Source: Candidatus Cloacimonadota bacterium (lineage in GTDB: Bacteria > Cloacimonadota > Cloacimonadia > JGIOTU-2). From it: DNA of 41,117 nucleotides. Made by a program: the position numbers and the translations under genes. Positions within the stretch are counted from its first letter, which is position 1. The number at the start of each line of letters is the position of its first letter. The stretch spans positions 1-41,117 of the forward strand of contig JAGHCS010000123.1 in the NCBI GenBank assembly GCA_021160355.1. The letters run 5' to 3'. Below the pieces are notes generated by a model. It did no database searches, was not told the DNA's origin, and worked only from the letters and a program-made list of their open reading frames with translations. Positions 5,255 to 17,058 of this stretch are shown one piece after another.

Positions 5255-6775
5255 ATGAAAAAGACGATCCTTGTTTCCTTAACACTTGTTACTGCACTAA
5301 TCCTTGTATGCAATTCACTTTCTGCAATTGAGTTATTAAAAGGCAAAACCCTGTACATGCAGGCACAGAATTTAGAGAAAAAAGCCGACTATTTCAACGC
5401 CCTTGAGCTTTATAAACAGGCTCGGCAGGAGCTACTCAATGAAGATGATATTGCCCTTGCAGATCAGTGCCGCCAGGCATGCACGCGGATGATAAAAATA
5501 ACTCTTACCTATACTCACACAGAAGAAGAGATGAGGAAAATGATCAAAGAGAAGTACCCGGATACATCCGACGAACGTATCGACCAGGTCATCGCAGACG
5601 GACGCCTGGCACATCTTGAGATCGGTGGAGAAACCTATTACTTCGACCATTTTTTGAACACGCTCTATCATATTTATCCTGATTTCATGACCGAAGAAGC
5701 AAAAGGGGCATTGGGAAAAATGGGGAAAATCTTTGACATCATGTCTCAGTATTTGTATGAAAAGGATGATATTCCCTCCTGGCAGTCACTCTCGAGTCCA
5801 CTTACTTTCGAGTTCGATGCCTATCTCTCCATTCCAAGAGATTCATTCCCGGATGAAGGAGTACTGCGTGTCTGGATGCCGCTCCCGCTTTCAAATTCAT
5901 CGCAGACAGATATTGTGATTGAATCTATCTGTTCCGAAGAATACATTCCATATCCTGCTCAGCTTGATGGCGATATCGGGTATGTGTATTATGAGTTCCC
6001 GCTGGAAGAAATCCAGGACAGCATACGTATCGGTGCTAAATTTTCTTATACCTCTTATGAAGTTCGATTCAATGTCCATCCGGAAAAAGTTGGTGAATAT
6101 GATAAAACTTCCTTGCTTTATAAGCAATATACGGCATCAGACAAAAATATTGCAATCACACCGGAAATTATACGCACGGCAAGAAAAATTGCCGGAGATG
6201 AAAAAAATCCCTATCTCATCGCAAAGAAATTCTATGATCATATTGTGTACGACCTTGATTACAGCTATATGCCACATGTGGCATTGGAAGCATTGAAAAT
6301 CCCTGAATCCGTCTTTGTTCACGAACACGGTTATGGCGACTGCGGTGCGCAGAGCATGTACTTTTCCGCACTATGTCGTGCAGTTGGAATTCCTGCTCGT
6401 GCTTCCGGTGGCATGCAGCTTTTCCCACTGAGCGCAGCACATTGCGGTGACCACTTCTGGGCGCATATTTTCATGCCAAACTACGGCTGGATACCGGTCG
6501 ACACTTCTGTCGGACAAGCAGCAAAATATATTATTACGATTACAAAAGAACAGCAAACAGATTTTATCGAATACTTTTTCGGTAATATAGATCCATTCCG
6601 TTATCTCATCCAGGTGGATGTTGATGTTCCGCTAGAACCTGCTCCTGAAGAACCTTTATTATTCGGAATGGTGCTCCAGGCGCCAACAGCAGAATGCATG
6701 GAAATGGATGAAAACCCCGGATTACTTTTTATGGAATATTGGAAGATAAGCTGCAAGGAAGTATCTCAACCATAA
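5255..6775 (+). CDS. Secreted transglutaminase-like domain protein
   Basis: The ORF track starts at TTG 5204. ATG 5255 gives a signal peptide, MKKTILVSLTLVTALILVCNSLSA. Transglutaminase-like Cys-His-Asp core: GYGDCGAQSMYF, DHFWAHIF, WIPVDTS. Confidence 0.8.
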   Translation: MKKTILVSLTLVTALILVCNSLSAIELLKGKTLYMQAQNLEKKADYFNALELYKQARQELLNEDDIALADQCRQACTRMIKITLTYTHTEEEMRKMIKEKYPDTSDERIDQVIADGRLAHLEIGGETYYFDHFLNTLYHIYPDFMTEEAKGALGKMGKIFDIMSQYLYEKDDIPSWQSLSSPLTFEFDAYLSIPRDSFPDEGVLRVWMPLPLSNSSQTDIVIESICSEEYIPYPAQLDGDIGYVYYEFPLEEIQDSIRIGAKFSYTSYEVRFNVHPEKVGEYDKTSLLYKQYTASDKNIAITPEIIRTARKIAGDEKNPYLIAKKFYDHIVYDLDYSYMPHVALEALKIPESVFVHEHGYGDCGAQSMYFSALCRAVGIPARASGGMQLFPLSAAHCGDHFWAHIFMPNYGWIPVDTSVGQAAKYIITITKEQQTDFIEYFFGNIDPFRYLIQVDVDVPLEPAPEEPLLFGMVLQAPTAECMEMDENPGLLFMEYWKISCKEVSQP

Positions 6776-6811
6776 TATAGAAAAAATACTCTCGCCAAGG
6801 GAAGGAGAAAG

Positions 6812-8446: not shown

Positions 8447-9088
8447 TTGAAATATAAATTAGTCATACTGGATTTTGACGGCACGCTTGCGGATACCTTT
8501 CATTGGTTCGTGAAGAATATCCGTGCTGTTGCTGACAAATACGGTTTTAAAAATATCACGGATGATGAGGTTGAGTACCTCCGTAATTTCGATGCCAAGC
8601 ACATGATCAAACACGTTGGATTTCCAATACTTAAGCTCCCCCTGATCGCAAAGCATATGCGTGGACTCATGAAAAAAGAGATCCATACGATCACGCTCTT
8701 TGAGGCTGTTCCTGAAATGCTGCACAAACTGCATGATGCGGGACTTTCACTTGCCGTGGTAAGCACTAACTCCCAGGAAAATGTGAAATCCGTGCTTGGT
8801 CCAGACCTGAGTGTCCTGATCTCAGATTTTGAATGCGGTGTATTGCTGTTTGGCAAAGAGGCCAAATTTAAGAAAATTTCTCATAAGTGTAAAATCCCTC
8901 TCTCAGAAGCGATCTATATTGCAGACGAAATGCGCGACCTCGATTCCGCGCGACATGTGGGGCTCGATATAGGATTTGTCTCCTGGGGATATACCAACCC
9001 GGAACCATTGAGAAAATTAAATCCAACGATGTTTTTTGAGAATGTGGAGGAGATTGGTGAAGAATTGATTAAAAACCAGAAATCCTGA
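8447..9088 (+). CDS. HAD-superfamily hydrolase (phosphoglycolate phosphatase-like)
   Basis: TTG start 6 nt after AAAAGGA. Motif I ILDFDGTLADT, motif II VVSTNS, and a later IADEMRD. Confidence 0.85.
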   Translation: MKYKLVILDFDGTLADTFHWFVKNIRAVADKYGFKNITDDEVEYLRNFDAKHMIKHVGFPILKLPLIAKHMRGLMKKEIHTITLFEAVPEMLHKLHDAGLSLAVVSTNSQENVKSVLGPDLSVLISDFECGVLLFGKEAKFKKISHKCKIPLSEAIYIADEMRDLDSARHVGLDIGFVSWGYTNPEPLRKLNPTMFFENVEEIGEELIKNQKS

Positions 9089-9132
9089 ATAGGGAATTCC
9101 TTATTTTCCGACCCGTAAACGCACTCAATACA

Positions 9133-9223
9133 ATGCATTTTTTTATGCATCACCTAATTCTTACTCACAATCGCTGTGCATGAATCCTTTGTCGTGCACA
9201 AAATGTTAAAAAATTGTGCATGA
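9133..9223. repeat. Cluster of TGCA-core palindromes/repeats in non-coding DNA
   Basis: ATGCAT at 9133-9138 and 9145-9150. TGTGCATGA at 9175-9183 and 9215-9223 (exact, 40 bp apart), with GTGCAC at 9194-9199 between them. TGCA cores are spaced 18 and 22 bp apart. Confidence 0.7.
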
Positions 9224-9277
9224 TTTATGGGGAACTCGCATTCTTTCCTAACACAAATATCCAACGTTTCCATTTAC

Positions 9278-9421
9278 GATGCACTTAAGACATGCTCTAT
9301 TAATGTGAGTACTTGTCATAAGTCGGAAACTTGAAAATAAGATTAAAAGATAGTTCATTAAAGAAATGATAACCTTCGGCATGTCTCAAGTACATCTTAG
9401 TCCAGAGCTTGTGACAAGTAC
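9278..9421. repeat. Two interleaved imperfect inverted-repeat pairs sharing a GTACTTG/CAAGTAC core
   Basis: Pair 1: 9278-9295 GATGCACTTAAGACATGC against 9379-9396 GCATGTCTCAAGTACATC (16/18 complementary). Pair 2: 9309-9323 GTACTTGTCATAAGT against 9407-9421 GCTTGTGACAAGTAC (13/15). Order is L1 L2 R1 R2. Confidence 0.7.
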
Positions 9422-9444
9422 GATATAGAACATATTTTGCCTGA

Positions 9445-9543
9445 TACTATACTAATCCTGAGGTATTAAAGAAATTGAATCCGACCTTGTTTTTTGAGAA
9501 GGTTGAGGAGATTGGGGAAGAATTGATTAAATCCGAAAAATAA
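9445..9543 (+). pseudogene. Remnant of the 3' end of a HAD hydrolase gene (second, diverged copy of 8987-9088)
   Basis: In frame it reads YYTNPEVLKKLNPTLFFEKVEEIGEELIKSEK-stop, against GYTNPEPLRKLNPTMFFENVEEIGEELIKNQKS-stop in the intact gene. Preceded by an in-frame TGA at 9442. 68 of 84 aligned nt are identical by hand count. Confidence 0.8.
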
Positions 9544-9563
9544 TTTTTCTTTTCTGGAAATAT

Positions 9564-9597
9564 AAAAAAGCCCTAACATTCCGTCGGGGCTTTCGTT
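9564..9597. terminator. Hairpin homologous to the kbl/HAD bidirectional terminator (orphan copy)
   Basis: AAAGCCC (9567-9573) - 13-nt loop - GGGCTTT (9587-9593), flanked by A-run and T-rich tracts. Aligns with 12838-12873. Confidence 0.55.
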
Positions 9598-9617
9598 ATT
9601 GTATAAGGGGGTTATTA

Positions 9618-9671
9618 TTAATTTTCTTTGTATTTCTTCAGAACACCAAGCACATAATCGATATCAGCTTT
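9618..9671 (-). pseudogene. Remnant of the 3' end of a kbl (glycine C-acetyltransferase) gene
   Basis: Minus strand reads KADIDYVLGVLKKYKEN-stop, against EADIDYVLGVLKKYKETH-stop of the intact kbl (12891-12947). Homology stops abruptly upstream of 9671. Confidence 0.75.
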
Positions 9672-9708
9672 TCTTACATAGAATTTTATCTATTTATAAA
9701 GAAAAAAC

Positions 9709-9737
9709 TTGCGTATTTTTTATTATGGTGTTAAATT
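9709..9737 (+). promoter_or_regulatory. Candidate sigma70-type promoter for the cassette
   Basis: TTGCGT (9709-9714) - 17 nt - TAAATT (9732-9737), with TG two nt upstream of the -10. Weak match and unverified. Confidence 0.3.
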
Positions 9738-9758
9738 GTGTAAAATTATGTTATAGCG

Positions 9759-10448
9759 TTGAATATAGTTGAAAATAATAGAAAAGGAGTCACTCTTTTG
9801 AAAAATGAGATTATGACCCTCGAAGAAGTTGCTGAATATCTTCGCGTTTCTACGAGAACGGTTTATGATTGGGCAAAGAGGGGCGATATACCCTGTGGGA
9901 AGATGGGAACATCTTGGCGCTTTAAGCGGAATGAGATCGAAAATTGGACAACCCGGAAGCTCACTCCTCGTATTAAACAAACCGAGGTTTTACCGGTCGA
10001 TATAAAATCCATCTTAGTGCCTGAAAGGTGCATTGTTTTAAATACGGACAAGAAACAAGTAATCCTGAATAAGCTTATAGACCTATGCTCCACATTGCCG
10101 GGAATCGAATCCCGTAGCATGCTCGCTGAAGCGATCTTCAATCGTGAAAAATTAATGAGTACCGGGATTGGATTAGGTATTGCAGTACCCCACATCCGAT
10201 TCTCAGATGTGAAAGAAATTTGTGCCGCTTTTGCACTCAGTAACACACTGATCACGGATTATGAATCATTGGACGGAAAACCTGTGCAAATCGTTATCAT
10301 GATTATCGCGGGAAGAAATCAACATACCGAGTACATACAGTACTTATCAAAGATAGTATCGATATTACAAGATGAAAATACGAAAATGAAGTTACTCTCG
10401 TGCAAGACCGGTGCCGAGATATATTCAATATTGGTTGAAGACCAATGA
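9759..10448 (+). CDS. Fusion protein: excisionase/MerR-like HTH DNA-binding domain + PTS EIIA type-2 (EIIA-Ntr/PtsN-like) domain
   Basis: The ORF track start at 9759 is TTG. More likely starts are TTG 9798 (8 nt after GGAG at 9786-9789) or ATG 9813. HTH: MTLEEVAEYLRVSTRTVYDWAKRGDIPCGKMGTSWRFKRNEIENW. EIIA-2 domain with His context GLGIAVPHIR. Confidence 0.8.
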   Translation: MNIVENNRKGVTLLKNEIMTLEEVAEYLRVSTRTVYDWAKRGDIPCGKMGTSWRFKRNEIENWTTRKLTPRIKQTEVLPVDIKSILVPERCIVLNTDKKQVILNKLIDLCSTLPGIESRSMLAEAIFNREKLMSTGIGLGIAVPHIRFSDVKEICAAFALSNTLITDYESLDGKPVQIVIMIIAGRNQHTEYIQYLSKIVSILQDENTKMKLLSCKTGAEIYSILVEDQ

Positions 10449-12121
10449 ACGAAACCCTTTTTAATAGCCCCGGCGTATTAGTACTTCTTGGGGTTGGAGT
10501 TTTCGGTGGAATATTGACCGCGGTTATTTTTAAACGTATAAAAATACCTCAGGTGCTTGGATACATGGCGGCTGGATTAATCCTTGGAAGTAGTGGATTC
10601 CATATTATTAAATCTGCCGACATCGTAAAGCTAGCGCCGGTGAACCTTTTCTGCCTGGCAGTCATAGGATTTCTCGTTGGTGGAGAAATTAAATTCGAAA
10701 CCATGAAGAAATACGGCAAACAGTTCACGGCCATTCTTCTGGGAGAAGGATTGCTCTCGTTTATTTTAGTCACCTCTGCCATTAGCGGAATTGTATATCT
10801 GATAAGCGGTAGTATTGCTATTTCTTTTGCCGCCGGTGTTGTATTTGGGGCGATTGCATCCGCAACAGATCCTGCCTCGACAATCGCTGTTCTATGGGAA
10901 TACCGCAGCGGAGGAATCCTCACAACGACCCTCACGGCAATTGTTGCTCTTGATGACGCGCTCGCGATGACGCTGTACGGATTGGGGAGTGGTTTTGCCG
11001 AGCTTTTCGGTCAGGGGCATGCAAACATCGGCATTCAAATTCTTCATGTTGGCATCGAATTATTCGGTTCCCTTGCCCTTGGTATCGTTGTTGGACTTAT
11101 CATTGCTTCAATCCTGAAACGCTCCTCATCACTTGATGCCACGACAGCTTCTGCGATCGGGTTGCTGATGGTAGCAACTGGGATTGCAGATTTCTACTCG
11201 CTGGATGTCATACTTGTATCAATGGCTGCAGGAATAACCGTTGCGAATCGCTATTCCAACCGGTATGAAAGTCTTTCTGGTCGTTTTAAAGCATTTTCAA
11301 CGACAATCTATGTTCTATTTTTTGTGTTCGTTGGAGCGCGGCTCAAACTTCAGGCAATGCCAATATGGCTATGGGCAATTATTGGAGCATACGTGGTTAC
11401 GCGTAGTTTCGGTAAAATATTTGGAACCTGGATTGGATGTCGTATTTCGGGTGCAAGTAACGTTGTTTCGCGCTATGGAGGTATGGGGCTTCTTGCTCAG
11501 GGAGGTGTTGCGGTTGGACTCTCAATTATGGCTGCTCAAAAGCTGGAAGGCATAGAAATCACCGCAGGGCTACCCCTTGGGGATGTCATCATATTCGCCA
11601 TAACGACCACTACTTTTATTGTACAGATCATAGGACCAACAATGGTGAAGATGGCGGCTAAAAAAGCAGGAGAGCTGAATCGTAATATTCTTGCAGAAGA
11701 TATTGCCGCGTCTATGCGCATCTCCGATGTTCCACTCCTGACTCAATTCAAAGCTAATATCTCTATGCCCGTGCGGGAGGTGTTGGCACAATTCTCCCAA
11801 AGCCGTGCGGACATTATTCCTGTAGTGGACAATCACAATATTGTTGTCGGTATAATCGGACTAGATGAACTTCGAGACCTGATGTTCAAAGATGTGACAT
11901 GGAACTGGCTTATAGCCGAAGACATTACATCAAATCCCAAAGCCCTTATACAACCCAGCCAATCCCTTAAAGATGTTTTATCAACCATGGATCAGCTTGA
12001 TGTTCCAAACCTTCTGGTGGTTGACAAGGGTAAGAGGTTGAAGGGAATCGCCTCCAGGCCTGTTATCAGAGACACAATTCGAAACGAATTAGTAAAAAAA
12101 CAAATGCGGCAAATTCCTTAG
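10445..12121 (+). CDS. Cation:proton antiporter (Na_H_Exchanger/CPA family) with C-terminal CBS-domain pair
   Basis: 558 aa with ATGA overlap to the upstream gene. About 12 hydrophobic helices. SATDPAS and ALDDALAM motifs typical of CPA transporters. The last ~150 aa form two CBS-like repeats (…ADIIPVVDNHNIVVGIIGLDELRD…, …VPNLLVVDKGKRLKGIASR…). Confidence 0.8.
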   Translation: MNETLFNSPGVLVLLGVGVFGGILTAVIFKRIKIPQVLGYMAAGLILGSSGFHIIKSADIVKLAPVNLFCLAVIGFLVGGEIKFETMKKYGKQFTAILLGEGLLSFILVTSAISGIVYLISGSIAISFAAGVVFGAIASATDPASTIAVLWEYRSGGILTTTLTAIVALDDALAMTLYGLGSGFAELFGQGHANIGIQILHVGIELFGSLALGIVVGLIIASILKRSSSLDATTASAIGLLMVATGIADFYSLDVILVSMAAGITVANRYSNRYESLSGRFKAFSTTIYVLFFVFVGARLKLQAMPIWLWAIIGAYVVTRSFGKIFGTWIGCRISGASNVVSRYGGMGLLAQGGVAVGLSIMAAQKLEGIEITAGLPLGDVIIFAITTTTFIVQIIGPTMVKMAAKKAGELNRNILAEDIAASMRISDVPLLTQFKANISMPVREVLAQFSQSRADIIPVVDNHNIVVGIIGLDELRDLMFKDVTWNWLIAEDITSNPKALIQPSQSLKDVLSTMDQLDVPNLLVVDKGKRLKGIASRPVIRDTIRNELVKKQMRQIP

Positions 12122-12149
12122 TTGCTGCGTATTAAAAAAGGAGTATTGT

Positions 12150-12629
12150 ATGCCAGGAGAAGCTATTGGAAAACTTACCGTGAGCGATATACGGAAGAGT
12201 GTCGTTGAAAATCCTGCTGTTGTTACGATAGGTACTTCAATAAAAGATGCTTTAATAGAATTAGTTGAGGATCACCGAACACGACATATCTACATAACAG
12301 ATAAAAATGGTAAAATGATCGGTTCTGTTCGAGTTAACAATGTCATTGAATACCTTTTCCCCTATGAAACGCTTTGGCAAAGCAGTTCAGAATATGCAGA
12401 TTTGGGGATTTTCTCAAAAAAGAATCTGGAGGACATAATTAATAGGAACTTCGTGTATGTCCGCGATTCAACAAAGGTTTCAGATATGATAAGCATAATG
12501 TTAAGTGAAAAAATTAATGAACTGCCTGTGCTCGATTCGGAGATGAGAATAATTGGTGAAGTAAATATCCTTGAGGTAATTATCGCATATCTTAAGGATG
12601 ACGGCAATAAACTTTTGACGAACAATTAG
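12150..12629 (+). CDS. Stand-alone CBS-domain pair protein
   Basis: 159 aa with AAGGAG RBS. Two CBS-like repeats (…HRTRHIYITDKNGKMIGSVRVNNVIE…, …INELPVLDSEMRIIGEVNILEVI…). Confidence 0.75.
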   Translation: MPGEAIGKLTVSDIRKSVVENPAVVTIGTSIKDALIELVEDHRTRHIYITDKNGKMIGSVRVNNVIEYLFPYETLWQSSSEYADLGIFSKKNLEDIINRNFVYVRDSTKVSDMISIMLSEKINELPVLDSEMRIIGEVNILEVIIAYLKDDGNKLLTNN

Positions 12630-12837
12630 AGAAAATTTCGATTGCATCAAAATCATTACCAAAATGAAAAAACTATAAAATTATTGATTATTCATAGAAC
12701 GTGATCGAAAAATGTCCTTTGCTGCAATGGTTCTCGTTTTGTGCACTGCTAACGTACGGAACATTAAGAAAAGCATAAAAGACAGCAAATTTGAATATCC
12801 TCGAGTTTAATTCGGGGATTTTATGATTAGCCCTTCA

Positions 12838-12873
12838 CAAAAAAGCCCCAACATGAAATCAGGGCTTTTCGTT
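12838..12873. terminator. Bidirectional rho-independent terminator (kbl operon / cassette)
   Basis: AAAAGCCC (12841-12848) - 13-nt loop - GGGCTTTT (12862-12869), with A-run on one side and T-run on the other. Confidence 0.65.
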
Positions 12874-12890
12874 TATCTTATTAAGTGGTA

Positions 12891-14120
12891 TTAGTGTGTT
12901 TCTTTATACTTTTTCAGGACGCCGAGCACATAATCAATATCAGCTTCGGTATGGTCTGCGTTGACCTGGAATCGGATCTCTTCATCACCCTTTGGCACCA
13001 CCGGGAAGTTCAAACCAGTGCCAAGCACGCCGTTCTCGGTTAGATACTTTACGAGTTCTGCTGTTTTGGGGGTGTCGCGCACCATAAGAGGAACCACCGG
13101 GTGAGGTCCTTCAATCGTTTCGTAGCCAAGATCGATCAAACCTTTCTCGAACTTCGCGGTCATTTCTGCAAGATGCTCAAGTCTCTTCAGCCCTTGCGGA
13201 GAATCGATAATATCGAGCACTTTCAGCACTGCGGCAGCTTCTGAGTTGGTGATCGGGTTTGAGTAAATATACATCGGTGCTTTTTCTCTGAGGTAGGTAG
13301 TGATCGTTTCTGAGGACGTTACATATCCGCCGTTCACGCCAAATGCTTTACCCAGTGTGCCGATCAGGACATCGACCTTCGTGTTTAGATATTCTTCCGT
13401 GCCGCGCCCGGTCTTACCGAGTGCGCCCACGCCGTGTGAATCATCAACGACCGAGAATACACCCTCTTCGAATTTATCATTATATTTCTCACACAGTTCT
13501 ACGATTTTATCGAGTGGTGCATGGTCACCGCGCATACTGAAGATGCCGTCTGTGATGACCATACAGCGTTTGCCTTTGCCCACTGCTTCCTGCATGCGTG
13601 CTTCGAGCTCATCCATATTATTGTGTTTATAGATCATCTTTTCTGCGGGTCGGGAAAGGCGGATCGCTTGGATAATGCAGTTGTGATTCAATTCGTCGCT
13701 GATAACCACAGTTTCTTTAGTCATAAGGGGATAGATCACACCCAAACTTGTTACATAAGCAGAGCTGAAAATCATTGCAGATTCGCGTCCATGGAAGTCC
13801 GCAAGTTTCTTTTCCAGTTCGATATGCGGGGTGTAGGTTCCGCTGATGAAACGAACCGCGCCAGGTCCGACACCAAATTTTTCCGCGGCTTTTTCTTCAG
13901 CTTTTATGACTTCGGGATTTAATGACATACCGAGATAGGAGTTCGAATTCATTTTGATGAATTTTTTCTCTCCATATCCATGTATGCATACGCGGGGTCC
14001 AAATTCGCCTTCGGGCTTGATCACGTCTGTTATCACCATTTCAGCGCCCTTGTCTCTTCCGCTCTCTCTCAAGTCTTTCAGTTCCTTTTCAAGCGCAGTT
14101 TTAATCTTGTTTACTGGCAT
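12891..14120 (-). CDS. kbl: Glycine C-acetyltransferase (2-amino-3-ketobutyrate CoA ligase)
   Basis: PLP-dependent alpha-oxoamine synthase family. Motifs: DELNHNCIIQ, VDDSHGVG, TLGKAFG (PLP Lys). The ORF-track start 14132 is a TTG inside the RBS. ATG 14120 sits 5 nt after GGAGG, giving MPVNKIK... Confidence 0.9.
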   Translation of the reverse strand: MPVNKIKTALEKELKDLRESGRDKGAEMVITDVIKPEGEFGPRVCIHGYGEKKFIKMNSNSYLGMSLNPEVIKAEEKAAEKFGVGPGAVRFISGTYTPHIELEKKLADFHGRESAMIFSSAYVTSLGVIYPLMTKETVVISDELNHNCIIQAIRLSRPAEKMIYKHNNMDELEARMQEAVGKGKRCMVITDGIFSMRGDHAPLDKIVELCEKYNDKFEEGVFSVVDDSHGVGALGKTGRGTEEYLNTKVDVLIGTLGKAFGVNGGYVTSSETITTYLREKAPMYIYSNPITNSEAAAVLKVLDIIDSPQGLKRLEHLAEMTAKFEKGLIDLGYETIEGPHPVVPLMVRDTPKTAELVKYLTENGVLGTGLNFPVVPKGDEEIRFQVNADHTEADIDYVLGVLKKYKETH

Positions 14121-14146
14121 GTATTCCTCCAAATATTTTTATATAT

Positions 14147-15097
14147 TTATTTTATTTTTTTTGATAATACGTCGAGCATGTCTTTCGTCATTGCTTCGAG
14201 ATCATACTCCGGTTTCCAGCCCCATTCTTCACGAGCAGCAGAATCATCCATGGAGTTGGGCCATGAATTGGCAATTGCCTGTCGAACTGGATCAACGTCA
14301 TATTCTAGTTCAAATTCAGGAATGATCTTCTTTATCGATGCTGCGATCATTTCCGGATCAAAGCTCATTGCAGTCACATTAAAGGCATTTCTGTGTTTCA
14401 GTTTTGCGGGATCGGCTTCCATAAGATCGATTGCTGCTTTGATCGCATCGGGCATATACATCATATCCAGGAATGTTCCTTTGCCGAGATTACATGTATA
14501 TTTTTTATTTTTGATCGCTTCATAATATATCTCGACCGCATAATCTGTCGTGCCACCGCCTGGGAGTGTTTCATTTGAGATGATTCCGGGATAGCGTACA
14601 CCTCGTGTGTCCACGCCAAATCGCTTGAAATAATAATCACAAAGCAGTTCTCCGGCAACTTTGGTAACGCCGTACATGGTGCTCGGTCTTTGAATTGTAT
14701 CCTGGGGTGTATTGTCGAGTGGTGTTGACTCTCCGAATGCGCCGATAGAGCTGGGAGTGAAAACAGCACAGCCATGTTCTCGAGCGACTTCCAGCACATT
14801 GTACAATGCATTTATGTTGACGTTCCATGCAAGATTCGGCTTTGCTTCCGCTACTGCAGAAAGGATTGCTGCAAGGTGATAAATTGTGTCGATATTGTAC
14901 TTCTTTACAACGTCTTTTACCTGCTCGAAATTGGTGCAGTCAACCATTTCGCAAGGACCGGAATTTTTAAGGATGTCTCCCGGTTTTGTTCTGTGGAATC
15001 CCGCAACCACATTGTCATTACCAAATCTTTTCCGTAATTCCATTGTGAGTTCAGAGCCAATTTGTCCTACTGCTCCAGTGACAAGAATATTTTTCAT
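14147..15097 (-). CDS. tdh: L-threonine 3-dehydrogenase, SDR/UDP-galactose-4-epimerase-like type
   Basis: 316 aa. MKNILVTGAVGQIGSEL Rossmann fold and YGVTK catalytic YxxxK. Lies immediately upstream of kbl, the classic tdh-kbl pair. Confidence 0.85.
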   Translation of the reverse strand: MKNILVTGAVGQIGSELTMELRKRFGNDNVVAGFHRTKPGDILKNSGPCEMVDCTNFEQVKDVVKKYNIDTIYHLAAILSAVAEAKPNLAWNVNINALYNVLEVAREHGCAVFTPSSIGAFGESTPLDNTPQDTIQRPSTMYGVTKVAGELLCDYYFKRFGVDTRGVRYPGIISNETLPGGGTTDYAVEIYYEAIKNKKYTCNLGKGTFLDMMYMPDAIKAAIDLMEADPAKLKHRNAFNVTAMSFDPEMIAASIKKIIPEFELEYDVDPVRQAIANSWPNSMDDSAAREEWGWKPEYDLEAMTKDMLDVLSKKIK

Positions 15098-15505
15098 TTA
15101 TCCTCCGATTTCAATTTCTAATTTTTCTAATATTACTACTGCAATTGCAGATTCTTTCGTGTGTGAAAGTGATACATGTATCTTATTGATTCCTGCATCG
15201 TCACAGATCTGTTTTGCCGTGTTCTGCATGTGGAGTTCCGGTTTGCCGAGTCCGTTATTGACAACCTCGACATCCTTCCATTTCAAGCCGCCCCGTAAAC
15301 CGGAACCAAGCGCTTTTAAAAATGCCTCTTTTGCGGCAAATCTGGCTGCAAAACATTGTGCCTGTATTGCCAGATTCTCGGCTCTGGTGCAATAGATTCT
15401 CTCACTCTCAGTGAAGAGCATGTTCATGAATTTTTCACCGTAGGAAGCTAACTCTTTTTTGATCCGTTCAACTTCAACAAGGTCTGTGCCAATGCCATAT
15501 ATCAT
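15098..15505 (-). CDS. acpS: Holo-[acyl-carrier-protein] synthase
   Basis: The ORF track extends to 15616. ATG 15505 gives the canonical MIYGIGTDLVEVERI start and forms an ATGA overlap with the murE stop. The stop abuts the tdh start (15098/15097). Confidence 0.85.
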   Translation of the reverse strand: MIYGIGTDLVEVERIKKELASYGEKFMNMLFTESERIYCTRAENLAIQAQCFAARFAAKEAFLKALGSGLRGGLKWKDVEVVNNGLGKPELHMQNTAKQICDDAGINKIHVSLSHTKESAIAVVILEKLEIEIGG

Positions 15506-17058
15506 AGTCTGCTTTTTTTTTCTGCATGATTCTCTGTCAACATTAATTCTCTCATTTTCAGGGCATTTTGCACAACCAGATATTCGCTCCACGGAAGTTC
15601 TTGCGCACCGTAACACATTGTCGTTTCGTGTGCCTTCCCGCAGGTGATGACCGTGTCTCCATCCTGTGCAGAAAGTATCGCTTTTTCTATTGCTTTTTCA
15701 CGATCGGGTATCTTAAAAAAATCTATTCCCTCTTTTCTTCCTTCCTGAATACAGCCCGCAGCAATTTCGTTTATGATGTCATCAACGGATTCGGTACGGG
15801 GATCTTCGGCAGTGATGTATATTTTATCTGCGAGTTTACCTGCGACGATACCCATTTCTTTCCGCTTTTGTACATCACGAAGCCCTGCGCTTCCGAAAAC
15901 AACATGTATTAAACCTTTTGTGAATGAGCGAACTGAATCGAGCGCATTCTCTAGTGCATTAGTGGTATGTGCAAAATCTATAATCATATTGAAATTTCCT
16001 GTCTTATGGGCAATGCGTTCCATCCTGCCCTTTATGTGCTGTAATGACGCAATTGACAAGATGATTTTCTCTTTCGATATGTTCTGCGAGTATGCAACGG
16101 CAACTGCTGCGAGGATATTATAGACATTGTATATTCCAAGAAGATGGCTTTCTACGTTGAATTTATCCTTCCGGGTATGTATTGTAAATTTCAATAGCCC
16201 ATTTTCTTGAGAAATCTCATCAGCCAAAAAATCTGCTTTAGTATTTAGACCAAAAGAAAAATGCTGATCGGCATCATATTTGCTAAAAGTGCCGTAGCTT
16301 GGATCATCATAATTGAGTACACTTATCTTAGGAATGTCATTCTTCTTGTATGACAATGAAAGAAGCTCGAAAAGATGTGCTTTTGCACTGATGTATTCAT
16401 CTCTGGATTTATGGAAATCGAGATGCTCGGAAGTAATGTTCGTGAGTACGGCAATATCATATTCACATGCTTCCACCCTGTACTGTGCGAGCCCGTGAGA
16501 GGAAGTCTCTATGATTGCATATTCCGATCCGGAGGCAACCATTTCTGCTAGATATTTCTGGAGTGAAAGTGCATCGGGGGTCGTGGTATGGAATCCTGTT
16601 TGAAAAGCCTTGTCTCCAATAATTGCATTTATCGAGGTGATCAATCCTGTTTTGTATCCTGCATCGTTCAGAATCTGATGAATGATCGTTGAGGTTGTTG
16701 TTTTTCCGTCAGTGCCAGTGACACCAATAACCTTTAGTTTTCTTGCTGGAAATCCATAAAATGCAGCAGCGATGAGGGCTAACGCTTTTCTCGTGTTTTG
16801 TATCTTTATAAAGGGAATATCTTTACCTTTTGAAACGTACGCTTCGTCCTCAAGGAGGATTGCAGAAGCTCCTTTTTCGAGTGCTTTATTTACATACTTG
16901 TGACCGTTCACATCGACTCCTTTTATTGCGACGAACAGATCACCCTTTTCAAGATTTCTTGTATTAAAAGAGATGCCTGATATGTCAATTTCGCGGACAG
17001 CCTTGTAACCGAGAACGGTATAGTCTTGCAGACTTTTGAGGAGTTTTTGCAGTATCAT
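15502..17058 (-). CDS. murE: UDP-N-acetylmuramoyl-L-alanyl-D-glutamate--diamino acid ligase
   Basis: 518 aa. Mur ligase P-loop GVTGTDGKTT. Motifs TNITSEHLDFH, DFAHT and AEDPR (15796-15807). Confidence 0.9.
   Translation of the reverse strand: MILQKLLKSLQDYTVLGYKAVREIDISGISFNTRNLEKGDLFVAIKGVDVNGHKYVNKALEKGASAILLEDEAYVSKGKDIPFIKIQNTRKALALIAAAFYGFPARKLKVIGVTGTDGKTTTSTIIHQILNDAGYKTGLITSINAIIGDKAFQTGFHTTTPDALSLQKYLAEMVASGSEYAIIETSSHGLAQYRVEACEYDIAVLTNITSEHLDFHKSRDEYISAKAHLFELLSLSYKKNDIPKISVLNYDDPSYGTFSKYDADQHFSFGLNTKADFLADEISQENGLLKFTIHTRKDKFNVESHLLGIYNVYNILAAVAVAYSQNISKEKIILSIASLQHIKGRMERIAHKTGNFNMIIDFAHTTNALENALDSVRSFTKGLIHVVFGSAGLRDVQKRKEMGIVAGKLADKIYITAEDPRTESVDDIINEIAAGCIQEGRKEGIDFFKIPDREKAIEKAILSAQDGDTVITCGKAHETTMCYGAQELPWSEYLVVQNALKMRELMLTENHAEKKSRL

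Follow-up and report, generated by a model that had tools for sequence, protein, structure and literature searches.

How can the junction between two housekeeping genes come to hold two inserts and, between them, a second copy of both gene ends, in a region without integrase or transposase genes? This question is raised by a stretch of 41,117 nt (contig JAGHCS010000123.1 of assembly GCA_021160355.1; the whole stretch is hereafter called the window) from the core chromosome of an uncultured member of the Cloacimonadota, for which the closest named record is Candidatus Celaenobacter antarcticus. In this window, a gene for a HAD-family hydrolase (8447-9088, plus strand) and a kbl-like aminotransferase gene (12891-14132, minus strand) are convergent, and the interval between them contains a non-coding element, termed E, a miniature HAD-terminator-kbl junction, and a three-gene cassette. 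We consider it probable that, in a Cloacimonadota clade, this convergent junction of HAD and kbl acts as a hotspot of horizontal transfer, free of mobile-element machinery, in which turnover proceeds by host recombination with occasional one-sided displacement of the resident gene ends.

Duplicated gene ends at the HAD/kbl junction

The features of the locus are as follows (domains by Pfam, repeats by alignment).

8447-9088, plus strand: intact HAD-family hydrolase gene, the left flanking core gene (213 aa; Pfam HAD_2, 5e-25)
8990-9073, plus strand: repeat copy A, the duplicated 84-nt segment of the functional HAD 3' end
9074-9088, plus strand: lineage-specific HAD tail (NQKS and stop), contiguous with element E
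9089-9444, no strand: element E, a 356-nt non-coding insert with operator-like palindromes
9445-9543, plus strand: HAD' remnant, the last ~32 codons with their own stop; the repeat proper, A', is 9448-9531
9564-9597, no strand: T', putative relic bidirectional terminator hairpin of a former empty junction, homologous to 12839-12873
9618-9671, minus strand: kbl' remnant, the last 17 codons and stop; its inner breakpoint, directly after CAGCTT, adjoins the cassette
9672-12837, plus strand: three-gene cassette with its own upstream region
9798-10448, plus strand: HTH_17 and PTS_EIIA_2 gene of the cassette
10445-12121, plus strand: Na/H exchanger and CBS gene of the cassette
12150-12629, plus strand: CBS-pair gene of the cassette
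12838-12873, no strand: T, functional bidirectional terminator, contiguous with the cassette block
12891-12946, minus strand: repeat copy K, within the 3' end of the kbl-like gene
12891-14132, minus strand: intact kbl-like gene, the right flanking core gene (Pfam Aminotran_1_2; gene callers place the start at 14120, giving 409 aa)

Both gene ends are present twice. The segment 9448-9531 was aligned without gaps to 8990-9073, with 68 of 84 nt identical (81%) and a local score of 88, compared with 17.9 +/- 2.2 (maximum 27) for shuffled sequences. The second repeat, of ~107 nt and 77% identity, joins the hairpin, the spacer and the kbl 3' end (9564-9670 and 12839-12946; score 88, shuffles 18.6 +/- 2.5), and the kbl pieces within it (9613-9670 and 12889-12946) are 81% identical. 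Both repeat pairs were also detected independently by a repeat finder, and the relic hairpin is intact, with a folding energy of -12.3 kcal/mol compared with -9.2 for the functional hairpin. Thus, the second HAD end, the second terminator hairpin and the minus-strand copy of the kbl C-terminus, which an initial annotation had described from the letters of the window, are all recovered by formal alignment and stand far above the shuffled background that it had named as a check. The HAD ends are translated as YYTNPEVLKKLNPTLFFEKVEEIGEELIKSEK and GYTNPEPLRKLNPTMFFENVEEIGEELIKNQKS and the kbl ends as KADIDYVLGVLKKYKEN and EADIDYVLGVLKKYKETH, each followed by a stop. The HAD direct repeat stops 15 nt short of the present stop codon (at 9073 and 9531), and therefore each HAD copy has its own C-terminal tail; an in-frame TGA at 9442-9444 precedes the HAD' remnant.

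The differences between the copies are mostly synonymous, as the initial annotation had counted by hand. The proportions of synonymous (pS) and nonsynonymous (pN) differences were 0.70 and 0.07 for the HAD pair and 0.70 and 0.06 for the kbl pair, and the differences fell on the three codon positions as 2/2/12 and 1/1/8, respectively. Overall, 18 of the 26 coding differences were synonymous, compared with 20% expected under neutrality (binomial P=5.7e-8). Because this divergence reflects purifying selection, the remnants appear to have been functional gene ends until recently, and the synonymous bias supports the earlier view that they diverged as functional coding sequence and not through local decay. 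The longest exact stretches common to the repeat copies are only 10-15 nt and lie in conserved codons. A check for microhomology at the putative illegitimate joints showed the 8-nt CGATATAG at 8965 and 9421, adjoining the joint of E and HAD', and nothing interpretable at the CAGCTT joint.

Four assemblies made from other samples (L006, L010, L011 and L012) have the same architecture, with 99.5-99.6% identity. The species is present in JGI 3300033148, ENA ERZ27248454 and ERZ27248172, and Ga0164313. An assembly artefact was rejected because the arrangement recurs in these different samples, giving five independent assemblies in all. These assemblies also revealed that the repeats are recombinationally active in nature and that the intact and remnant copies exchange sequence by gene conversion. 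The background divergence within the species is 0.4% (1 single-nucleotide polymorphism, SNP, per 250 nt). At 9005-9058, 10 SNPs were observed in L010 and 12 in L011, and the remnant base is present in 8 and 9 of these, respectively; the dense cluster in repeat copy A spans 9005-9049 and mostly copies the remnant. Conversely, the L006 remnant carries two intact-type bases. A smaller cluster, of 4 SNPs in about 45 nt, occurs in the kbl tail at 12877-12921, and both clusters fall exactly in the two functional repeat copies. Moreover, one contig end in L012 reads as the tail of E, an A'/A hybrid, E and A' (L012 5040-5189 corresponds to window 9404-9444, 9448-9500 and 9043-9088 in succession); the hybrid HAD repeat changes from remnant type to intact type within TTGTTTTTTGAGAA and is followed by full E. 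This junction is a tandem duplication or a circular form of a 458-nt unit, and would be expected if the repeats recombined by unequal crossover or excision.

Empty site, cargo states and the two inserts

Relatives were located through the HAD and kbl proteins, together with a metagenome pattern scan (at least four loci); their loci carry L numbers below. HAD orthologues in relatives have 80-97% aa identity, and the kbl-like gene belongs to the glycine C-acetyltransferase family of aminotransferases, its homologues being named glycine C-acetyltransferase by JGI. In L030, the two genes are convergent with 92 nt between them, including the terminator, and this locus is an empty site. The order of its junction (HAD end, spacer, hairpin, kbl end) is that of window 9445-9671, and the direct repeats that flank the inserts in the window (84 nt and ~107 nt; >30 bp) are single-copy there. 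In addition to this one empty state, at least nine cargo states were observed, among them the following.

L001 (contig CAYLRQ010000054.1): type II restriction-modification (R-M) pair (HNH nuclease and double methyltransferase), together with E and a truncated HAD'
L002: DUF3800 gene together with an open reading frame (ORF) of unknown function
L003/L041: two other genes (a DHO_dh-like gene is listed), then kbl' and the same cassette
L004: 577-aa unknown ORF
L013-19: NYN-domain gene
L020/L035/L046: GltD/DHODB, with HTH_5 in addition in L020/L035
L032: 446-aa ORF

The remnants are separable, since L001 has E and HAD' with other cargo and L003 has kbl' and the cassette without HAD'. The breakpoints vary among the cargos, and the window and L003 have one in common, after CAGCTT. 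When L002 was compared with the empty L030, homology ended within the last HAD codons, after GAGATTG, and returned at the run of A preceding the terminator; GAGATTG, at the position equivalent to 9517, is also where the R-M insert of L001 cuts HAD'. The C-terminal tails of HAD differ in almost every lineage. Given such boundaries in the last HAD codons and the variable tails, the HAD tail is effectively part of the exchanged segment. Among the loci compared, the kbl relationships disagree with those of the genes beyond kbl, and the kbl contexts of P0008 and P0006 show lost synteny or contig ends.

A search of all large ORFs with Pfam found no integrase or transposase in the whole 41-kb window, and Pfam and the gene tables together gave no integrase, transposase, phage, prophage or conjugative genes in the window or in the inserts of the relatives. 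No tRNA or tmRNA target lies within the window, and all of its other genes are housekeeping genes. The initial annotation had suggested that DNA is exchanged here at a hotspot of recombination without a dedicated recombinase, and had called for relatives with an uninterrupted junction or with only one insert; the empty L030 and the loci with different cargo agree with that suggestion.

Element E is 100% identical across the five same-species assemblies and 96% identical in L001, the latter a conservation far above that of neutral sites. The block 9050-9517 (HAD end, E and HAD') differs by 3.4% between the window and L001, compared with 31% at the synonymous sites of the adjacent HAD body, and this low divergence is either recent exchange or constraint. 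The palindromes of E lie at 9175-9223, with TGCACAA-N12-TTGTGCA at 9195-9220 and TGTGCATGA at 9175 and 9215. Positions 40-118 of E are homologous to L008 10711-10791, ~100 nt downstream of HAD in this distant lineage, where TCATGCACA-GCGAT-TGTGCATGA forms a perfect palindrome. A regulated promoter is one possible role for E, and a small RNA that ends at the relic terminator is another. Its folding was unremarkable (z -1.5 and -1.8), and Rfam gave no match at gathering score for E and the mini junction, with chance-level ones only at E<5. For the best small ORF of E (35 aa), a search of 1.84 billion proteins gave no homologue, a tblastx comparison with all loci yielded nothing meaningful, and no match to E or the mini junction was found in plasmid and phage collections. 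A decayed HAD copy was rejected as the origin of E, the only match being of 13 nt and inside the shuffle range, as was an element derived from a miniature inverted-repeat transposable element or insertion sequence: terminal inverted repeats are absent, the palindromes are internal only, and E is single-copy in the window and the loci.

The three-gene cassette is a shuffled local resident and not exotic cargo. Its HTH_17-EIIA regulator belongs to a widespread chromosomal family (>800 homologues), and the cassette occupies other nearby positions. A homologous block is present at the same site in L003/L041, directly upstream of HAD and without a remnant in L046/L047, and upstream of an MBL-fold gene preceding HAD in L009/L032/L036. 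In the last three loci, the cassette has the intact MBL-fold gene on one side and a truncated, decayed copy of that gene's 5' end on the other, as follows.

L009 3327-3450 and 5986-6816; L032 2087-2210; likewise L036-L039: MBL 5' remnant, cassette, intact MBL gene

The decayed remnant reads MKFTVLVDNNTYIDRYFLG and then a stop. Its sequence is the one typical of the clade (GTGGACAACAATAC), and it is the intact 5' end, contiguous with the cassette, that is atypical. This is a second, independent instance of a resident gene end displaced by an incoming module with its own copy.

Several further observations concern the cassette. At the second site, the HTH-EIIA/Na-H exchanger cassette has its downstream spacer and ribosome-binding site joined exactly to the MBL start codon, and the same spacer in the window (12122-12149) stands before the CBS-pair gene. 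The latter carries AAACTTACCGT (window 12171-12181; codons 8-11, KLTV), identical to the first codons after the ATG of the MBL-fold gene in L009, L013 and L031; this match may be microhomology from an old illegitimate joint, or chance. The CBS-pair gene is followed by a 208-nt spacer, in which a terminator-like hairpin (12797-12819; ATCCTCGAG...CGGGGAT, then a T-run) stands just ahead of the shared bidirectional terminator. Two proposals for the cassette were rejected: a foreign origin by composition, as its GC content is like that of the flanks and AT-rich only in intergenic parts, and derivation of the CBS-pair gene from the CBS gene found near GltD in relatives, to which it has no similarity.

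The relatives also showed features apart from the junction. L030 has other small variable spots in this neighbourhood (6221-6789 and 14833-16639), both absent from the window: upstream of SpoIIAA, a toxin-antitoxin pair (PhdYeFM/ParE), and, following the prolyl isomerase gene, an N6_N4 methylase with a BsaWI-like nuclease. The labels of L001 and L002 are 'uncultured archaeon' and 'Candidatus Neomarinimicrobiota', respectively. Both are clearly closely related to Cloacimonadota contigs, and their HAD proteins have 92-94% aa identity to that of the window; these bin labels look wrong.

Proposed displacement of resident ends and its rivals

The explanation that we favour is that cargo modules are swapped between lineages by host homologous recombination, the crossovers falling in the final conserved stretches of the flanking core genes. 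At least two past events would have been one-sided. In these, the incoming DNA would have consisted of cargo and its own copy of the adjacent gene end (on the kbl side, also the terminator), and would have entered by homologous recombination in the gene body on one side and by an illegitimate join a few dozen nt inside the 3' end of the resident gene on the other, with the resident ends pushed aside and not deleted. HAD' (9445-9543), the old terminator (9564-9597) and kbl' (9618-9671) would then be the fossil of a former empty junction between two later inserts. Subsequently, the duplicated ends would act as ordinary repeats in gene conversion, unequal crossover and excision, and as homology arms with which a module and its scar could move on to other lineages.

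The polarity of these events may be judged from the kbl side, where the terminator-plus-tail unit occurs in two classes. The functional unit of the window belongs to a class common to eight other units (L2, L3, L4, L13, L30, L32, L35 and the L3 remnant), with 79-90% identity. The kbl bodies are synonymously saturated (pS 0.59-0.76 compared with the window in all nine lineages compared), whereas the last 17 kbl codons have pS 0.18-0.36 in 6 of the 9 lineages and the non-coding spacer is nearly invariant. Because it is uniform across lineages with saturated kbl bodies, the functional kbl unit is interpreted as the travelling piece. The kbl' remnant unit shows 69-71% identity to the class of the functional unit and 79-80% to the units of L023 and of L001 (by HAD the closest relative), and the remnant and the functional kbl end have diverged to the ordinary between-lineage level, as for a vertically inherited end. 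In view of the class uniformity, the affinity to L001 and L023 and this ordinary divergence, kbl' is taken to be the old resident end, and the functional tail to have come in together with the cassette. In the window and in L003, the common inner breakpoint stands beside different remnant alleles, which is expected if the remnant is the left homology arm for onward recombination of the module. From these comparisons of short sequences, it appears more likely that the remnant junction is the displaced resident junction and that the functional ends arrived with the inserts or were overwritten after them.

The distances along kbl may be recorded here. The last ~200 nt of kbl, with spacer and terminator (window 12838-13100), are 79-90% identical among lineages with kbl bodies 66-80% identical. 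Within kbl, the L002/L030 lineage is ~8-10% further from the window than L004/L013, and it is not further in the genes beyond. This pattern points to allele replacement of the gene flanking the hotspot.

Several points weigh against displacement of resident ends. Homology-facilitated illegitimate recombination is rare in experiments (PMC5361080). The low pS of the kbl tail rests on about 11 synonymous sites. On the HAD side, both copies are equally distant from other lineages and their affinities do not discriminate; the two copies have a common lineage-specific block of 27 nt (26/27 identical) beside a 57-nt block at 74%, a pattern that fits in-situ duplication with later overwriting or conversion as well as displacement with later conversion. 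No near-identical donor was found, and the directions of the events are therefore judged from short segments (57-110 nt). Among the closest homologues inspected, there was no kbl with the end KYKEN and no HAD with the end IKSEK to serve as exact sources of the remnants, and only the related tail classes ESK and ENE/ENK were present. In L001, the terminator-kbl unit is situated at the end of a contig and has just 79% identity to the window remnant, and its standing as 'native' is therefore tentative. In addition, the L003 remnant is marginally nearer its sister L004 than is the intact L003 copy (86.6 vs 83.9%), and the identical CAGCTT breakpoint in the window and L003 could be a site-specific cut.

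Among the rivals to this explanation, insertion in situ with a long target duplication (84-110 nt), the copies being identical at first and the functional ones then undergoing allele replacement, would make the remnants frozen older alleles. This course of events, which we regard as doubtful, agrees with the direct target repeats that flank each insert and occur once in L030, with the lack of mobility genes (the features listed in PMC2853133), with the 26/27 lineage-specific block of the HAD copies beside the 57-nt block at 74%, and with the SNP clusters, in which the functional copy is overwritten today; the tandem amplification through repeats proposed for such inserts is seen in L012. However, reported long duplications are nearly identical, and the repeats here are at 77-81% with saturated synonymous sites, extra events would be required at both genes, and the widely shared class of the functional kbl tail is not explained by duplication itself. 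Target duplication departs from the favoured explanation in the first step only and has the same outcome, with the remnant as the older resident allele. Less can be said for the initial annotation's own reading, in which the 227-nt mini junction is an imported piece of the empty junction of another lineage, now separating two inserts. The remnant unit is indeed 69-71% identical to all class-1 alleles while the functional unit of the window is clade-typical, and both remnants diverged as functional genes. Nevertheless, a short fragment would have to land exactly between two unrelated inserts, with more events needed, and its halves have separate histories (HAD' with E in L001, kbl' with the cassette in L003). 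The kbl tail typical of the clade is conspicuously uniform across saturated lineages, which marks the functional tail as the traveller, and the closest relative of the window, L001, has the allele class of the remnant. We consider importation very unlikely: the remnants behave as separable modules, the kbl side speaks for the opposite direction, and it is most likely the functional ends, not the mini junction, that deserve the label 'foreign'.

Site-specific integration would account for the direct-repeat anatomy with a reconstituted gene end in another way, if integrase-less satellite modules bring a replacement 3' end in the manner of phages that enter icd or tRNA genes, use a tyrosine or serine recombinase encoded elsewhere, and leave the repeats as attL and attR. 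The CAGCTT breakpoint recurring beside different remnant alleles in the window and L003, the compatibility of the L012 junction with a circle, and the HTH_17 (excisionase-type) domain in the first cassette protein are in its favour. However, this protein belongs to the widespread chromosomal family of regulators mentioned above, no recombinase gene is present in the 41 kb or in the insert of any relative, and the exact stretches common to the repeats are confined to 10-15 nt in conserved codons. The breakpoints also vary, with the R-M insert cutting HAD' at the 9517 equivalent and L002 replacing the HAD tail up to the terminator, and elsewhere the cassette stands beside a 5' gene remnant or, directly upstream of HAD, without any remnant. 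Satellite integration is thus very unlikely in our estimation.

Exchange by host recombination with one-sided displacement, the favoured explanation, has a possible extension, in which the displaced ends are portable homology arms that make the cargo self-spreading without a recombinase. A module between two diverged core-gene ends would be looped out by host recombination, as in the junction of E-tail, hybrid and E in L012, reach a related cell, and re-insert at the gene-end copy of that cell. We rate this extension as unlikely. If true, it would account for the 3.4% difference in block 9050-9517 against 31% in the synonymous sites of the HAD body, for one cassette breakpoint beside lineage-specific remnant alleles, and for one kbl tail-terminator class across otherwise saturated lineages.

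Known systems and significance

Hotspots without mobile elements, with turnover by homologous recombination in flanking core genes, have been described (2017, PMC5635113). As in those, the same core gene pair here brackets varied accessory content without an integrase; the flanking core genes show possible signs of recombination. The site differs from them in its nested scars of displaced gene ends, which are not produced by a simple double crossover, and in belonging to a clade represented by metagenomes alone. Sequential displacement through homology-facilitated illegitimate recombination was proposed for the effector-immunity arrays of the type VI secretion system in Vibrio cholerae and for Rhs C-terminal displacement, where successive events build arrays that are afterwards spread through ordinary homologous recombination (Kirchberger et al. 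2017, PMC5361080). There, too, a module enters via a conserved anchor and the old 3' end is shifted downstream as an orphan; in the window, the HAD' and kbl' orphan 3' fragments are distal and the intact genes proximal, with the parallel MBL' case in L009/L032. The mechanism is equally unproven in both. However, toxin domains are displaced and immunity genes selected in those arrays, whereas short ends of housekeeping genes without evident use are displaced here, and from both sides of a convergent junction. Inserts with long target duplication lack mobility genes and have direct repeats of 46-423 bp, made of target sequence that occurs once in the genome with the empty site (Nobusato et al. 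2000; Furuta et al. 2010, PMC2853133). Many of these repeats overlap the 3' end of a gene, as here, and amplification through them was proposed; the published repeats are nearly identical, unlike the 77-81% with synonymous-type divergence found here, and the cargo in the window is not an R-M system, though L001 has one at this site. Their lower identity sets the present repeats apart from that class.

In integrase-mediated integration at a gene 3' end, as with phage 21 and e14 at icd, the element supplies a replacement end. Integration of the lambdoid phage 21 and of e14 takes place at icd (site noted in PMC12803456). The insert there supplies a diverged 3' end, the target stays intact and the displaced original end lies on the far side, as in the window; unlike there, no integrase, phage genes or common crossover core is present here, and the breakpoints vary among the cargos.

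The site is a clear example of a known process with unusually legible scars, and not a new kind of element. It also cautions annotators that a gene end recurring as a short in-frame copy near a variable region is a relic of recombination and not a new gene or element. Most bacterial horizontal-transfer hotspots are without recognisable mobile elements, and gene gain and loss in them are inferred mainly from statistics. Because the scars, an empty-site relative, about ten cargo states, and ongoing conversion and duplication are preserved at the HAD/kbl junction, the order and type of recombination events can be reconstructed here in a phylum known only from metagenomes.

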